Source of the DNA: Patescibacteria group bacterium
GTDB lineage: Bacteria > Patescibacteriota > Kazan-3B-28 > UBA10110
Assembly: GCA_041659905.1 (NCBI GenBank)
Contig: JBAZXK010000001.1
Location: 58,670 to 122,669 of the forward strand
DNA length: 64,000 nucleotides
Direction of reading: 5' to 3'
Both the position numbers and the translations under genes were made by a program. Positions 12,075 through 63,986 of this stretch are shown here, piece by piece (within the stretch, counting starts at the first letter, position 1; each line of letters starts with the position of its first letter). The notes beneath the pieces are model-generated. The model saw only the letters and a list, made by a program, of their open reading frames with translations, was not told the DNA's origin and made no database searches.

Positions 12075-12345
12075 AAGGGCAAGCATTTAGCATCTAAGGG
12101 AGAGAAAAATAATTCCCCTCCTGCCGGAGGAGGGGCTGGGGGAGGTGGGAGTATATATTCCCCGAGCGTAGTCGAGCCTGCCTGCCGGTAGGCAGGGGGC
12201 TACTTTATAATGTCCGTCATCCTGAATTTATTTCAGGATCTCCCCACCGTCATTCCCGCGGAGGCGGAAATCCAGACAAGAAAATAAACAGAAACATTTT
12301 TTCTGTTCTTTTCTAGATTCCGGCTCGGAGGCCGGAATGACGGAC
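12075..12345. repeat. composite repeat block (family C motif, family A ggggag/cctgcctgccgg palindrome, gtcatcctgaa hairpin, family B GTCATTCC...GGAATGAC element)
   Basis: matches to the other interspersed copies listed below. Confidence 0.6.
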
Positions 12346-12347
12346 AT

Positions 12348-12478
12348 AAAAAACACCCCGTTCTTTGTCCTATGGAGGTTCATTTCGCATAAAGAGTTCA
12401 GAAACGGGGTGAGGGGGGAAGAGGTTGTACGCTCACATTGACAGGAGGCTACATCTCAATCCCTTGAATATCAGGTAA
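12348..12478 (-). ncRNA. candidate small transcription unit D (promoter TTGACG-17-TATAAT at about 12479-12507 on minus, terminator 12348-12411)
   Basis: perfect -10 TATAAT with 17-nt spacer; transcript about 120 nt ending in a caccccgtt/aacggggtg stem plus T6; no RBS or credible ORF. Confidence 0.35.
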
Positions 12479-12505
12479 ATTATACTCCACCCCTGTTTTG
12501 GCGTC

Positions 12506-12709
12506 AAAAAAGAACCCGCCCGGCAGGCGGGCGGGGCGTGGTTTTGATGGCTAAAAGCCTTCCACTCTAACGAGAATTTCTGTTGCAAATTTAATGAATG
12601 TGCAAAGAGCCGAGGAACCCGATCTGGTACCCTCCAGATTGTGCGGGGAATAATAATGTACGCGCGGGGACTGCTCCCTCGGTCTATCTAACATGATTTG
12701 ACCATTAGT
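12506..12709 (-). ncRNA. candidate small transcription unit C (promoter TTGACA-18-TATATT at about 12710-12739, terminator cccgcccgcctgccgggcggg+T-run at 12506-12536)
   Basis: consensus -35, strong GC hairpin plus T-run on minus strand; next -35 starts immediately after the T-run. Confidence 0.35.
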
Positions 12710-12737
12710 AATATAGTTCATTTTTACTCTTGGTGTC

Positions 12738-12862
12738 AAAAGAAAAACCCCGCCATTAGAGGACGGGATTGTCGCGAAGAGTTTGACCGAAAGCCGATCA
12801 CGGATGCAGCTCCGTTGACGGTTGTTCCTTCGGCTGCAGAAAATGAAATAACTGTTATTTAG
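12738..12862 (-). ncRNA. candidate small transcription unit B (promoter TTGACA-18-TACAAT at about 12863-12892, terminator 12738-12768)
   Basis: same architecture as units C and D; transcript about 115 nt. Confidence 0.35.
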
Positions 12863-12890
12863 ATTGTATATTATTTCTATTCCTGGTGTC

Positions 12891-12929
12891 AAAAAAAATG
12901 ACCCCCACCGCCGTTGGCGGTAAGGGTCA
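12891..12929 (-). terminator. rho-independent terminator downstream of sdpI-like gene (unit A)
   Basis: tgaccc..ccgccaacggcgg..gggtca hairpin followed by T8 on the minus strand; TTGACA of unit B overlaps the T-run. Confidence 0.6.
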
Positions 12930-13016
12930 CAGAGGTTGACCGAAGAGGCTAATGGGGGGATTGGTCCCATTTTGTGACCCTTCGATCTGACCGGATCATG
13001 TCTTTTAGATTATAGC

Positions 13017-61119: not shown

Positions 61120-61476
61120 TTACTTATTTTTGACTTTAGAGGCTTTGACCTCATCGGTTGTCCGGGTGCTTTTACCTTTTGCTTTCACCTTATTTTTAGT
61201 TGTTTTGGCGGGTTGAGAATCCTTTTTGGCTTGGAGTTTAGTTTTAGCCGCTTCCGCTTTTTTAGTTTCGCGCAATTGTTTGGCTATTCTTTTGTCGGTT
61301 TTGGTATTAAGGATCTTTTTCTTACCATAATAACCGCACTCAGGGCAGACGATATGACCGGGTTTAGGGTGCCGGCAACTAGGACAGAGCGGTAGATTGC
61401 TAAATTTAACACCGATATGGGCCCGGCGGGTTTTGCCTCTCACATGACTGATTTTCTTTTTTGGTTGAGCAGCCAT
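61120..61476 (-). CDS. rpmF: 50S ribosomal protein L32 with about 60 aa Lys-rich C-terminal extension
   Basis: L32 core with CPSCRHPKPGHIVCPECGYY zinc ribbon; located downstream of yceD as is typical. Confidence 0.8.
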   Translation of the reverse strand: MAAQPKKKISHVRGKTRRAHIGVKFSNLPLCPSCRHPKPGHIVCPECGYYGKKKILNTKTDKRIAKQLRETKKAEAAKTKLQAKKDSQPAKTTKNKVKAKGKSTRTTDEVKASKVKNK

Positions 61477-61480
61477 AATC

Positions 61481-62020
61481 TTATAGATTTATCTTATTGT
61501 GTATTTCAAACTTTACTTTATCACATTTACAGGGATTGTCATTTAAATTAGCTCCACATTTTGGGCACAGACCCTGGCAATCTTTTTGACAGAGCACTCT
61601 GAGGGGAATACTGGCAATAATTTCTTCGGTGAGCACAGGATCAAGATCCATTTGTCCATCTTCAATCGGGTAAGCCTCCTCGTCTATGTTTTCGTTATTC
61701 TGGGCGGGACTCGGAATCTCTGTCTTAAATTCTCTGGAAAAATTCAGCGGGATAGTCAAAATTACTTCTTTCAGACATCGGCTACAGGGCTGGATGATGT
61801 GAGCGTCTCCTTTAATCTGGGCCAAGATAAATTCATCCAGATGAGTCAAAACAGCTTGGCCGGTTATTTGGGCTTTGGCTTCATCAATCGGTAGGGCAGT
61901 TATCTCTAAAGGGTAGTTTTCGGTGCTGCCTTCCGGCTGATTTAACAGGTTTTTTACTTCGATTTTCATGCTAAAAATATTGAATAGCCAGATTATAAGG
62001 CTTTTTCCTGCCCTTGTCAC
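61481..62020 (-). CDS. YceD/DUF177 family protein
   Basis: C-terminal CxxC...CxxC (CSRC..., CPKCGANLNDNPCKC); conserved position upstream of rpmF. Confidence 0.7.
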   Translation of the reverse strand: MTRAGKSLIIWLFNIFSMKIEVKNLLNQPEGSTENYPLEITALPIDEAKAQITGQAVLTHLDEFILAQIKGDAHIIQPCSRCLKEVILTIPLNFSREFKTEIPSPAQNNENIDEEAYPIEDGQMDLDPVLTEEIIASIPLRVLCQKDCQGLCPKCGANLNDNPCKCDKVKFEIHNKINL

Positions 62021-62102
62021 CTATATATGGCTCTTATTGACACTTTCCAGCTTTTGTCATATCTTGTAGGAGCTTTAAATGTAAGCCAAGAAAAGGAAGA
62101 AA

Positions 62103-62600
62103 TTGCTAGTTATCAGATTATCCCGTAAAGGCAGACGCAACCTACCGATGTACCGCATTACGGTCGCGGAAAATAGTATGCCTACGGATGGAAAATTTGT
62201 CGAGATAGTAGGGAATTATAACCCCACTGATTTAGGCCAACCCCTGGTCATTCAAAAAGATCGGGTGGAATATTGGATTTCTAAAGGCGCCAAGCCTACT
62301 AATACTGTAGCTAAGCTTTTGAATAAGCAAGGGTTTAATTTGGGGGTGGTGCAGTATCATAAGGCGCCAAAGAAGGTGGCGAAGCCGGCAGAAGCGGTAG
62401 CGGCAGTCACAGTGGCTGAAAAGCCGACCGAGGAAGTGCCAGAGCCAACAGTTGAAGAGCAACCGGCGGCAGAAGTAATTACTGAAACAACCCCGGAAGT
62501 AGAAACCCCGGTGACAGAATCAACAGAAACACCTTCTGAAGACGCGACTGAAAGTAATTCTGATGCAGGAATCGGAGTCGCTGACGTGAAAACTGAGTAA
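62103..62600 (+). CDS. rpsP: 30S ribosomal protein S16 with Pro/Glu/Thr-rich C-terminal extension
   Basis: MLVIRLSRKGRRNLPMYRITVAE S16 N-terminus; about 80 aa low-complexity tail. Confidence 0.85.
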   Translation: MLVIRLSRKGRRNLPMYRITVAENSMPTDGKFVEIVGNYNPTDLGQPLVIQKDRVEYWISKGAKPTNTVAKLLNKQGFNLGVVQYHKAPKKVAKPAEAVAAVTVAEKPTEEVPEPTVEEQPAAEVITETTPEVETPVTESTETPSEDATESNSDAGIGVADVKTE

Positions 62601-62673
62601 TTTATAAAGATCCTGGTCGAAGCCAGGATGATGACGCAAGGAAAGCGTCATCAGTTAAAAGTTTTGGAGGAAC

Positions 62674-63018
62674 ATGGGCGATAAAGATAAGAATTTCGTT
62701 GAATACGTGGTGAAAGCCATCGTCGATAATCCGGACAAAGTTCAGGTAGAGCGCAAGGTTGACGAAATGGGCGTGTTGATCGAATTAACAGTGGCTCCAG
62801 AAGATATGGGCAAGATTATCGGCAAAGAGGGTCAAACCGCTAAAGCCGTGCGGACCTTACTTCGGGTATTAGGAGCGCAAATTAACGCACGTATTAATCT
62901 CAAGATTATCGAGCCAGAAGGCGGCTCTGGTCGGCGCTCAGAAGCAAGTGAATCTCGCAGCGCCAGTGCGCCGGGAACTACCACTAAAGAGGATTTGCAG
63001 GAATTAACTGCCGAATAA
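62674..63018 (+). CDS. KH domain RNA-binding protein (YlqC-like)
   Basis: GKIIGKEGQTAKAVRTLL KH motif; conserved position between rpsP and trmD. Confidence 0.7.
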   Translation: MGDKDKNFVEYVVKAIVDNPDKVQVERKVDEMGVLIELTVAPEDMGKIIGKEGQTAKAVRTLLRVLGAQINARINLKIIEPEGGSGRRSEASESRSASAPGTTTKEDLQELTAE

Positions 63019-63217
63019 AGCTGTTGAGTTACTTTCCCGAGGAAAGTAACCAAAGTCTTCGGGCAGTCGCCCTCATTATTCATTTAAGAAAATTCCCTTT
63101 CTGTTCTCGCCCGAGTGGTTTCGGGCTTCACAGCGGGAATTTTCTAAATTCAGGACATTCGGGCTCCAATGCCCGGATTAGCAGGGGTTAGGGGAAGAAT
63201 CGTATAATAAGAATGAA

Positions 63218-63928
63218 ATGAGGTTCACATTTATTACAATTTTTCCGGGGTTGATTGAAGACTTCTGTAAAGAAGGATTATTAGCGAAAGCGGTTCGGAC
63301 TCGCAAGATCAAGGTCGAGACGATCAATCCTCGGGATTTTACCGCTGATCCGCATCGCACTGTGGATGACTTGCCTTACGGCGGAGGCCAAGCCGGAATG
63401 ATTATGAAAGTTGAGCCGTTGGTCGCGGCGATCAGGAAAGCAGTCGGCTCCAAAAAATCTAAGGATACATTAGTAATCTTGCTATCGCCGAGTAAAAAAG
63501 TCTGGCAACAAAAGTTAGCGATTCAGTTTGCCAAAAGATATCAGCATATTGTTTTTGTCTGTGGCCGGTACGAAGGGGTAGATGCGCGAGTGGAGAAATA
63601 TATCGATGCTAAAATCAGTATCGGTGAATTTGTGTTGATGGGTGGCGAAGTGGCTGGGTTGGCTGTATTAGAATCTATCGCGCGGTTACTCCCGGGAGTT
63701 ATTGGCAATGAACCATCATTAACAGATGAGAGTTATGGTCAAAAATTTCATTTAGAATATCCGCAATATACTCGGCCGGAAGTGTTTGAGGGCAACAAAG
63801 TGCCCAAGGTTCTCTTGTCCGGCCACCATCAAAAAATCGAATTATGGCGGAAGCAACATAGCGCTCCTGTCATCCCGGACCGGATTGCCAAAGGCAAACC
63901 AGGATCCGGGATCCAGAAAGAAAAATAA
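63218..63928 (+). CDS. trmD: tRNA (guanine37-N1)-methyltransferase; last about 20 codons encoded by a family B repeat
   Basis: SPOUT/TrmD motifs YGGGQAGMIM, CGRYEGVDARV; C-terminal VIPDRIAKGKPGSGIQKEK lies within the repeat at 63869-63986. Confidence 0.85.
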   Translation: MRFTFITIFPGLIEDFCKEGLLAKAVRTRKIKVETINPRDFTADPHRTVDDLPYGGGQAGMIMKVEPLVAAIRKAVGSKKSKDTLVILLSPSKKVWQQKLAIQFAKRYQHIVFVCGRYEGVDARVEKYIDAKISIGEFVLMGGEVAGLAVLESIARLLPGVIGNEPSLTDESYGQKFHLEYPQYTRPEVFEGNKVPKVLLSGHHQKIELWRKQHSAPVIPDRIAKGKPGSGIQKEK

Positions 63929-63986
63929 ACAAAAACATTTCCTTTTTATTTTTATGTCTAGATTCCGGGTCAAGCCCGGAATGACG
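63869..63986. repeat. MITE-like element family B copy
   Basis: TGTCATCCCGG ... CCCGGAATGACG terminal inverted repeats with AT-rich centre. Confidence 0.65.

Follow-up and report, generated by a model that had tools for sequence, protein, structure and literature searches.

Mosaics of small, probably Ssn-related DNA hairpins in gene gaps and the murB gene of a Patescibacteria genome

The window analyzed here is a 64,000-nt stretch of contig JBAZXK010000001.1 (GCA_041659905.1, Patescibacteria group bacterium); all positions are window coordinates, and with the 10 kb searched on either side the analysis covered 84 kb altogether. Among the genes for ArsR, SdpI, AstE, a VTT-domain protein, MurB, S1, a DHH-family protein and TrmD lie about 20 small hairpin units, imperfect ones included, in 10 clusters (Table 1). 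The host of these mosaics is an uncultured member of the Patescibacteria (CPR), and the sites are gene gaps and one essential gene, murB. A sequence-only reading had listed ten repeat-bearing ranges, and every one holds what it described, including the repeats that separate the ArsR and SdpI genes (184 nt, 13683-13866). Its placement of the repeats precisely at gene ends applies to most clusters, which lie 2-18 nt from a stop codon or encode the last ~12-19 residues of the DHH-family protein and TrmD, but not to 49294-49388, which is inside the murB reading frame.

Table 1. Hairpin units, linkers and related features of the window, by cluster
Feature	Position	Strand	Remarks
CCTGCC linker module, reverse-complemented (CCTGCCTGCCGGTAGGCAGG)	12177..12196	-	
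Class C unit GTCATCCTGAATTTATTTCAGGATC	12216..12240	+	8-bp stem; DNA fold z -5.4
Class A' unit, NTS-like, GTCATTCCCGCGGAGGCGGAAATC	12249..12272	+	imperfect stem
AT-rich palindromic core CAGACA…AAACAGAAACAT…TCTAGA	12273..12315	.	families D2/D4 and fold
Class B unit GTCATTCCGGCCTCCGAGCCGGAATC	12316..12341	-	
Half unit GTCATTCCCG	13725..13734	+	then 13-nt pyrimidine-rich spacer, then full unit
Class I long unit GTCATCCTCGACCGA…TCGGATCGGGGATC	13748..13791	+	similar unit adjoins sdpI in L012
CCTGCC linker module	13792..13815	+	family D10
Class D 45-nt unit	13820..13864	-	outer end 2 nt from ArsR stop codon
Half unit GTCATTCC	14225..14232	+	
Class C unit	14242..14266	+	
Class F unit GTCATCCCTAGTGGAGTCGAGGGATC	14276..14301	+	
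Half unit GTCATTCCCGC	37803..37813	+	then 9-nt spacer; arrangement recurs in L014, L101 and many ssn loci
Class A unit	37822..37849	+	exact match to 28-nt Neisseria NTS consensus
AT-rich core	37850..37893	.	
Class E unit GTCATCCTCAGACTTGATCTGAGGATC	37894..37920	-	
Truncated long unit (J)	39217..39256	+	begins 3 nt after AstE stop codon
Class H 54-nt unit	39257..39310	+	
Class C unit	39359..39383	+	
Class A unit, NTS with 1 mismatch	43035..43062	+	5 nt past VTT-domain gene stop; half an AT-rich core comes next
In-frame ~55-aa insertion in murB	49291..49465	+	holds two class F units and one half unit
Class F unit	49294..49319	+	5-bp stem; within murB frame
Class F unit, inverted partner	49340..49365	-	in murB insertion
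Half unit GTCATTCCGG	49377..49386	-	in murB insertion
Class B unit	55792..55817	+	18 nt past S1 gene stop
CCTGCC linker module	55818..55841	+	
Class G 48-nt unit	55846..55893	-	
Class A unit, exact NTS	59010..59037	+	overlaps last codons of DHH-family gene
AT-rich core	59038..59084	.	
Class D unit	59085..59129	-	family D13
Class D unit	63869..63913	+	encodes TrmD residues from about 218 onward
AT-rich core	63914..63960	.	trmD stop codon inside
Class B' unit GTCATTCCGGGCTTGACCCGGAATC	63961..63985	-	

The building block is a strand-specific DNA stem-loop, YY-GTC-[AT(T)CC…stem-loop…GG(A)AT]-C-YAGA, of which the window holds at least nine sequence classes. Units of many classes are joined as inverted pairs around short linkers, with two linker types, a CCTGCC module and an AT-rich core. 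The internal modules described earlier recur as reported: the hairpin GTCATCCTGAAYT..TTCAGGATC in three copies, the palindrome CCTGCCTACCGGCAGGCAGG at 13792 and 55818 and reverse-complemented at 12177, and the AT-rich AAAAnAAACAnAAACAT core. In the window, the motif GTCATTCCSG occurs 12 times (0.17 expected) and GTCATYCC 18 times (3.4 expected), and a strict definition (GTCAT with a perfect stem of at least 6 bp beginning at its A, then C) yields 16 distinct units (17 rows, one nested) versus 0.39 ± 0.65 in 100 dinucleotide shuffles. Among the 16 strict units, 12 have a mismatch-free stem of 8-9 bp, and all ~20 units keep the GTC head as well as the C that follows the palindrome. Moreover, pyrimidines immediately precede GTC at 20 of 21 unit boundaries judged by eye, which fits the consensus HGTC. 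A further match, at 19510, lies without a hairpin inside a coding gene and is probably due to chance.

The sequence-only reading took these repeats for a MITE-like family with shared terminal inverted repeats (TIRs). They are indeed dispersed, non-coding and multi-copy, and short-read assemblies break exactly at the clusters, with independent contigs of the same organism ending inside them; a single family with defined termini, target-site duplications and fixed length is not what was found. GTCATTCCSG stands at both ends of one copy only (12249-12341), in the other composites the partner of a GTCATTCC unit is another kind of GTCAT unit (…GGGATGAC, …AGGATGAC, …AGAATGAC), and the sole terminus common to composites is GTCAT(Y)C. 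DNA folding resolves each composite into three separate hairpins instead of a single long one (z-scores -4 to -8), so the supposed TIRs are independent, self-contained stem-loops. Classical MITEs (e.g. Correia elements), which arise by deletion from an insertion sequence encoding a DDE transposase and have TIRs and target-site duplications, would share the small size, inverted ends, intergenic position, high copy number and apparent descent from a gene-bearing cassette minus its ORF. However, no target-site duplications were seen by eye at the 21 unit boundaries, the two arms belong to different classes and each forms its own hairpin, modules are shuffled between copies of varying length, and many units are solitary or only half units. 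The annotation of the 84 kb includes no transposase, nor was a cognate one with matching TIRs found there, and we regard a classical MITE origin as very improbable.

A link to a known system comes from the class A units, which carry the 28-nt sequence of the Neisseria Transformation Sequence (NTS). With at most 1 mismatch, three units agree with CGTCATTCCCGCGMAVGCGGGAATCYRG (0 expected in the window), these three also fit the published regular expression for Ssn-related motifs (SRM; 0.04 expected), and the dRS3 core occurs three times (0.01 expected). NTS/SRM repeats are single-stranded DNA targets of Ssn, a ~95-aa single-domain GIY-YIG nuclease that binds such hairpins solely as single-stranded DNA, cleaves a few nucleotides 5' of GTC and is typically encoded between inverted copies of its own motif (Chenal 2025, Nat Commun, PMC11893778). 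We read the repeats as mosaics and arrays of Ssn-related (NTS/SRM-type) hairpins, with a probability of about 0.75: like NTS/SRM, they keep the oriented GTC head and C tail, form hairpins, and are multi-copy and clustered between genes. Counting against this reading, only 3 of the ~20 units fit the SRM regular expression, and the 45-54-nt and GTCATCC… classes are assigned to the Ssn type provisionally, by shared head, tail and fold. A single nuclease is unlikely to serve all nine or more classes, since the Neisseria enzyme lost its activity when the palindrome was altered in a way that preserved the hairpin (PMC11893778). NTS/SRM hairpins and Ssn are known from Neisseria (PMC11893778), and the main text of that study makes no mention of CPR or Candidatus taxa; different here are the Patescibacteria MAG as host, the diversity of classes in one genome, most of them outside the published expression, and arrays in frame inside genes.

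Searching the 64-kb window and its 10-kb flanks with a profile HMM of about 100 Ssn homologues revealed no ssn gene. In a relative (L012), the counterpart of the ArsR/SdpI gap, which here has hairpins and no gene, contains a 95-aa GIY-YIG gene (Pfam PF01541, E 2.7e-14) flanked by hairpins, one resembling window unit I. The same gap is empty in L014, with ~4 nt from ArsR stop to SdpI start; L013 retains only fragments of both genes, and there too nothing interrupts the junction. Two other CPR contigs (L092, L097) have ssn flanked by exact NTS units. Furthermore, in a set of 80 metagenomic ssn loci, a '+' unit precedes the gene in 49 and a '-' unit follows it in 49, both being present in 32; the bracket is CAG…CTG, as in the window composites (CAGACA…TGTCTRGA). 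The core of the ORF-less composites L105-L107 matches the leader of the L104 ssn gene (20/20 nt) followed by its trailer (13/13 nt); such pairs are equal to an ssn cassette minus its ORF. This supports the view that inverted-pair composites are built like an autonomous cassette whose gene has been lost. The likeness of the window's AT-rich cores to the L092 ssn leader, being one of low-complexity sequence, could be overrated. With ssn in the L012 gap, inverted units bracketing ssn, and ORF-less pairs of this kind, the idea of non-autonomous derivatives is partly right, although the partner would be Ssn and not a DDE transposase.

The alternative named by the sequence-only reading itself was REP/BIME-type elements mobilized by a RAYT (a Y1, IS200-like transposase), which would have to be encoded elsewhere in the genome. 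Several features agree: the hairpins are strand-specific and carry a short conserved head at the 5' end, linkers join them into inverted doublets (the BIME/REPIN architecture), a small single-copy enzyme gene is itself repeat-flanked, and non-autonomous copies occur genome-wide. In one locus (L184), a RAYT flanked by inverted REPs even lies in frame in the same MurB loop, but its REP sequence (GGTGGGGCGGGCATTCYTGCCCGCC) is unrelated. A GT[AG]G head is defining for REPs, whereas the head here is GTC(A). Neither the window nor the locus of any close relative contains a detectable Y1 transposase, no RAYT gene was found in the window or within 10 kb of it, and in 49 of 80 loci it is ssn that these units bracket. 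A RAYT-driven origin is accordingly improbable. The units behave like REP/BIME-type hairpins with a dedicated enzyme, whose family is the GIY-YIG single-stranded DNA nuclease Ssn, not the HUH/Y1 transposases; Ssn is a nuclease and is not known to transfer strands.

REPs are also credited with secondary RNA-level roles, and the units might have been selected for effects on gene expression, as 3' mRNA stabilizers, terminators or attenuators. Most clusters do begin 2-18 nt from a stop codon, and one C unit scores terminator-like; yet most units lack a following U-tract, both orientations occur, Rfam gives no match, same-site content differs between relatives, one array is translated inside murB, and Ssn does not interact with the RNA form (PMC11893778). 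Selection at the RNA level is extremely improbable as an account of the repeats; such a role could be a secondary function, leaving the origin of the elements unexplained.

Related genomes differ in their arrays. Elements lie at different places, adjoining empty orthologous sites, and at three sites the unit classes vary from relative to relative: the murB loop, the CAP→AstE leader and the S1→IF2 gap, of which the last is empty in L100, L013 and L014. Within this population, four assemblies are 100% identical and show no mobility or polymorphism, which counts against the Ssn reading. The arrays might be orphans, Ssn/NTS-type hairpins in a genome that has lost ssn, persisting and changing only by ordinary homologous recombination and by replication slippage, without any enzyme of their own. 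The lack of ssn in the 84 kb and the gene-free ArsR/SdpI gap, as against that of L012, would suit such a state, and 19% of genomes with more than 200 SRMs have no ssn homologue (PMC11893778). However, the 84 kb are only about 8% of a ~1-Mb genome, and the near-perfect stems and almost identical copies (several pairs, e.g. D units at 94%) argue for recent copying or active maintenance. We consider orphan arrays unlikely.

Under the preferred Ssn-related reading, the inverted-pair composites in the window would have arisen, by loss of the ORF, from cassettes of the form unit–CAG–leader–ssn–trailer–CTG–unit, and an Ssn encoded elsewhere in this genome would still act on the hairpins whenever DNA is single-stranded, during replication or as incoming DNA during uptake. 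The ends it makes would drive recombination or template switching, by which units would be copied, swapped and seeded. Surviving units would be found solely at sites that can accommodate an insertion, namely immediately after stop codons, in the gaps between genes of an operon, or, with the reading frame kept, in surface loops.

Two further systems resemble these arrays. In the neisserial intergenic mosaic elements (NIME; dRS3 flanking RS), inverted ATTCCC-N8-GGGAAT hairpins surround short AT-richer spacer families with short terminal inverted repeats (here CAGACA…TGTCTG), positions are syntenic, and content and length differ between relatives; the inverted-pair-around-linker architecture matches dRS3-RS-dRS3. 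According to Bentley et al. (2007, PMC1797815), such arrays were unobserved outside Neisseria; those in the window belong to a different phylum, are short (1-3 units) and vary in hairpin sequence far beyond dRS3. Rickettsia palindromic elements, compared here by description, are in-frame palindromic repeats in housekeeping genes, tolerated as extra peptide (review PMC10969869). Most copies here are intergenic, unlike these elements; the likeness covers the C-termini of TrmD and the DHH-family protein and the murB loop, where the array forms an insertion within the reading frame and relatives carry different array content.

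The dispersed repeats of the window are built from GTC-headed DNA hairpin units, and together they form an abundant system of the NTS/SRM-Ssn kind described in 2025, with a NIME/BIME-like architecture, rather than a new class of element. In the window, GTCATTCCSG is found 12 times where 0.17 copies would be expected, and the shorter GTCATYCC 18 times against 3.4. When a strict unit is defined as GTCAT with a mismatch-free stem of 6 bp or more counted from the A and followed by C, the window holds 16 distinct units, compared with 0.39 ± 0.65 in 100 dinucleotide-preserving shuffles, and five further units are imperfect or truncated. 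In the ten ranges that a sequence-only reading had listed as copies of one family, every GTCAT starts its own stem-loop, GTC-[AT(T)CC…loop…GG(A)AT]-C, with GTC directly 5' and C directly 3' of the palindrome. The units are 24-54 nt long and comprise nine or more sequence classes; a GTCAT(Y)C head, a G(R)ATC tail and a YAGA after it are all that these classes have in common. Folded as DNA, they reach z-scores of -2 to -8.6, while composites (inverted unit pairs around a core or linker) fold as ssDNA into three separate hairpins, namely left unit, core and right unit (z-scores -4 to -8). Given these independent stem-loops and three-hairpin folds, the repeat family is genuine and is a mosaic of modules, not a single element with defined ends. 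All seven solitary or truncated units lie on the + strand, which GC skew marks as the G-rich strand throughout the window; in this small sample, such a bias would be consistent with one template strand being the exposed one.

Coordinates and sequences of repeat modules and associated features (window positions unless a relative's locus or contig is named)
Feature	Position	Detail
NTS, exact	37822-37849; 59010-59037	
NTS, one mismatch	43035-43062	
Imperfect or truncated unit, A'	12249	
Imperfect or truncated unit, I	13748	
Imperfect or truncated units, class F	49294 and 49340	n=2
Imperfect or truncated unit, J	39217	
Half units, window	13725; 14225; 37803; 49386(-)	n=4
Half units, relatives	L014:20958(-); L101:4950	
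Linker type 1		AT-rich palindrome CAGACA…AAAAnAAACAnAAACAT…TGTCTRGA
Linker type 2		module CCTGCCTACCGGCAGGCAGG
murB	49009-50094	361-aa ORF
Unit cluster within murB	49294-49388	
Insertion within murB	about 49291-49465	
murB insertion DNA, relatives	L100:10184-10255; L101:10305-10381	inverted GTCAT unit pair
Logan contig ends	12299; 12214/13810; 43114/43127; 55817	
AstE/AspA-like promoter and leader	37740-37800 and 37921-37990; L100:4085-4240; L101:3200-3640	
Second hairpin family, no GTC head	3310-3440; 38015-38176; 12112-12200	
Second hairpin family, related copy	L101, about 2620-2660	
Small transcription units	12345-13010	minus strand
Promoters of these units	12892; 12739; 12507	11/12 matches
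300-nt direct repeat	15605-15904 and 24189-24488	85% identity

The 28-nt Neisseria Transformation Sequence (NTS), CGTCATTCCCGCGMAVGCGGGAATCYRG, and a degenerate Ssn-related motif (SRM) were defined by Chenal et al. 2025 (PMC11893778). In that work, SsnA, a single-domain GIY-YIG nuclease of ~94 aa, binds the hairpin exclusively in its ssDNA form, and the cut falls a few nucleotides upstream; cleavage depends most on the trinucleotide preceding the palindrome and binding on the C just 3' of it, and the motif typically flanks ssn genes across phyla (PMC11893778). Searching with the NTS consensus at up to one mismatch, as in that study, returns two exact copies and one with a single mismatch, against 0.00 expected. 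The SRM pattern, HGTCWYN(0-2)YYVSBRHN(0-5)WNVSBRGN(0-2)RNCYNB, fits three units only, all of the NTS-like class A (0.04 expected), and the same three contain the dRS3 core (0.01 expected). The remaining ~17 units share head, tail and fold, have longer or other stem sequences that fall outside the SRM pattern, and all keep the GTC and C flanks described as critical (PMC11893778); by this shared head, tail and fold, units of classes A-I are putative Ssn targets. These findings place the Ssn/NTS system in the Candidate Phyla Radiation (CPR), and because the published pattern catches only ~15% of the window's units, SRM censuses probably undercount. An exact 28-nt GTCATTCCCGCGMAGGCGGGAATCCAGA (NTS plus CAGA) is also present in 53 viral or prophage-labelled IMG/VR stretches (L186-L238) with GC contents from 41% to 71%, among which no convincing ssn gene was found, and the identical hairpin thus exists across very different genomic backgrounds.

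A further recurrent module is the half unit, in which GTCATTCCSG(C) and a pyrimidine-rich spacer of 9-13 nt precede a full unit, the two starts lying 17-23 nt apart. Besides the window and its relatives, half units occur in L108, L111, L129, L131, L150, L159 and L164, recurring 5' of full units in many unrelated genomes and even directly upstream of ssn genes. Rfam, searched at the gathering threshold over the whole window and in E-value mode over 12000-14450, returned tRNAs only.

The sequence-only reading had taken the repeats for one MITE-like family of at least 11 copies with shared terminal inverted repeats. Non-autonomy and dispersal stand; the inverted repeats, target-site duplications and likely enzyme of a MITE do not. 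The arms of a composite belong to different classes, each of which folds on itself, and modules are reshuffled between copies. Reading the outer composite boundaries by eye reveals no direct repeats, and the flanks 5' of each GTC are pyrimidine-rich, which argues against cut-and-paste DDE transposition. Across every called gene of the window and of 10 kb to each side, Pfam annotation includes no transposase, RAYT or GIY-YIG gene, and a profile HMM from about 100 Ssn homologues has no match at E ≤ 1 in the same region, so that no ssn gene of its own was found within ~84 kb of this genome. A regex search of the window for GIY-YIG likewise gave no candidate, the sole match of one pattern being a non-GIY-YIG ORF at 38763, and the closest Ssn homologues (P0042, P0018 and P0002) all come from other genomes.

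Two better-known hairpin systems invite comparison. REP/BIME repeats mobilised by a RAYT, the rival that the sequence-only reading had itself raised, carry a conserved GT[AG]G head. Here the head is GTCA, and a RAYT/Y1_Tnp query has no match in the window or in the loci of close relatives, both of which argue against that assignment. A MurB-Y1_Tnp fusion (P0225) had prompted this check and was rejected as an unrelated REP/RAYT of a GC-rich organism (L184) with another repeat sequence. The NIME arrays of Neisseria, in which 20-bp ATTCCCN8GGGAAT inverted repeats (dRS3) flank RS elements of 50-150 bp, occupy fixed positions with changing content (Bentley et al. 2007, PMC1797815), as do the arrays of the window and its relatives. 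In the window, only one arm is dRS3 and the other belongs to another GTCAT class (3/3), with cores of 43-50 nt.

Fixed positions with changing content are evident from syntenic relatives, comprising three GyrA-anchored GTDB loci (L012, L013 and L014; GyrA identity 66-67%) and four MurB-anchored contigs (L100-L103; MurB identity 66-69% by BLASTP and 71-76% over the aligned columns of alignment A1). The nearest GyrA relatives are Patescibacteria MAGs, MurB matches bear the names Patescibacteria and 'candidate division Kazan', and the window's gene content includes DUF5671 and small genes, all of which together mark a CPR bacterium. Several of these relatives bear the window's unit classes, including exact NTS units. 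Between ArsR and SdpI, L014 has only ~4 nt from stop to start, and L013, in which the two genes are preserved only as fragments, shows a similarly unbroken junction. The window has 184 nt of hairpins at this site, and L012 has a 386-nt gap containing a 95-aa GIY-YIG gene (PF01541, E 2.7e-14), with a unit resembling window class I adjoining sdpI; an NCBIfam scan of this nuclease gave only a sub-threshold match to a group I intron endonuclease. The gap from S1 to IF2 is empty in L013, L014 and L100 and holds three different unit combinations in the window, L102 and L012. From CAP to AstE, the window, L100 and L101 share a conserved promoter-plus-leader that arrays of differing content break at an identical point. 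L012 has arrays of its own at GyrA/h138 and IF2/RbfA, two gaps that are array-free in the window.

The AstE/AspA-like gene is preceded by a conserved promoter (TTGACATAAGGAG…GGTGTAAATT) and then a conserved leader, AGTTTGAAC…[array]…GTTAATACATTGGGGG…CAATCGATT.GGTTCGATTGATGTTAATTA, which may be an unrecognised cis-regulatory RNA.

Insertion also reaches into coding sequence. One unit cluster lies inside murB, whose ORF stays open. Residues 23-89 and 151-360 of this MurB align to residues 37-103 and 111-318 of structure PDB 3tx1, positions that are adjacent there, indicating about 54 extra residues (a ~55-aa insertion), and both flanks of the insertion are conserved. At the same point, some relatives carry insertions of other length and sequence and others carry none; in L100 and L101, the inserted DNA is an inverted GTCAT unit pair of other classes. 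Furthermore, units encode the C-terminal ~19 residues of TrmD and ~12 of a DHH-family protein, and in L100 and L101 units lie within a Cas4/RNase_H-like ORF. In being palindromic repeats in frame within protein-coding genes, as in murB and the TrmD and DHH tails, these units resemble Rickettsia palindromic elements, and annotators should recognise the spurious or extended ORFs that they create.

The MurB insertion point is a surface position after …GFRGLVVR… and before …VEAGA… that takes in-frame inserts in many lineages, including inserts of 60-70 aa in P0185, P0192 and P0199. In L184, from another phylum (62% GC), the insert (4879-5527) consists of an entire RAYT/Y1-transposase gene between inverted REPs (GGTGGGGCGGGCATTCYTGCCCGCC), and the resulting MurB-RAYT fusion ORF is 497 aa long.

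The ssn gene is present and motif-flanked in L012 and other CPR contigs. For example, the CPR contig L092 carries ssn between inverted units, of which the upstream one is an exact NTS and the downstream one has its GTC head changed to ATC. The leader of this ssn (…CATAAAAACAAACAGAAACA|ATG) is A-rich and similar to the A-rich half of the window's cores. Among 80 metagenomic ssn loci, a '+' unit lies within 250 nt upstream of the gene in 49, a '-' unit lies downstream in 49, and 32 loci have the two together. On the 5' side, the unit is followed by CAG, 5-35 nt and the ATG; on the 3' side, 4-20 nt separate the stop codon from the CTG-unit. This CAG…CTG bracket is common to ssn loci and window composites. 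In L105-L107, an ORF-less pair has a core in which the leader of the ssn locus L104, CAGTCTATAATTACCTTATA (20/20), precedes the trailer of that locus, TATATTATGTCTG (13/13). Judged from their sequences, composites of this type are therefore demonstrably ssn cassettes minus the ORF or, equivalently, two extended arms back to back. The window composites may likewise be ORF-less ssn-cassette derivatives, as the shared bracket and the low-complexity likeness to the leaders of L092 and L012 suggest. The empty ArsR/SdpI site, the site with ssn, the hairpins-only site and the ORF-less cassettes are natural before and after states, which bear on the question of how these repeats spread.

Ssn targets its hairpin when the DNA is single-stranded and cuts on the 5' side of GTC (PMC11893778). 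A nuclease encoded outside the window might act on the units while they are single-stranded, and the resulting ends could promote recombination or template switching by which modules are copied and exchanged; selection would then spare insertions only at harmless places. Going further, the NTS-ssn-NTS cassettes could be real mobile elements with ORF-less non-autonomous derivatives and Ssn the first GIY-YIG 'hairpin transposase-like' mobiliser, a tentative reading to which we give perhaps three chances in ten and which would parallel RAYT/REPIN. If it were true, the Ssn system in reduced CPR genomes would have sufficient activity to place arrays between the genes of an operon, to rewrite protein C-termini and to keep a long-lived, in-frame and constantly remodelled insertion in the essential cell-wall enzyme MurB.

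The repeats also fragment CPR assemblies. Exact protein matches put the window on contig JBAYKS010000001.1 of the MAG GCA_041664485.1, and the ENA contig ERZ27249449 k141_795638 carries this sequence as well. Logan contigs built from short reads of this organism show 100% identity to the window and end within its unit clusters, as assemblies do at multi-copy repeats. No population polymorphism was found over the window among four assemblies, all 100% identical; an apparent difference between L010 and L011 was rejected as a gene-calling difference only.

A second, unrelated hairpin repeat family, TTCCCCTCC…CCTGCCTGCCGG…GGAGGGG followed by GAGGTGGATAAATAATTAATCCACC and CTCCCCTC…GGGGAG, co-occurs with the GTCAT arrays and has a CCTGCC module in common with them. 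Elsewhere, three or four small transcription units stand in tandem, and each has a near-consensus promoter (TTGACA-N17/18-TAnAAT) whose start lies within the T-run of the intrinsic terminator before it. They have no Rfam match, overlap a 139-aa ORF without a Pfam match, and are possibly unknown CPR small RNAs. Finally, a 300-nt direct repeat, its copies 8.6 kb apart in small acetyltransferase-like genes, probably marks paralogous genes.
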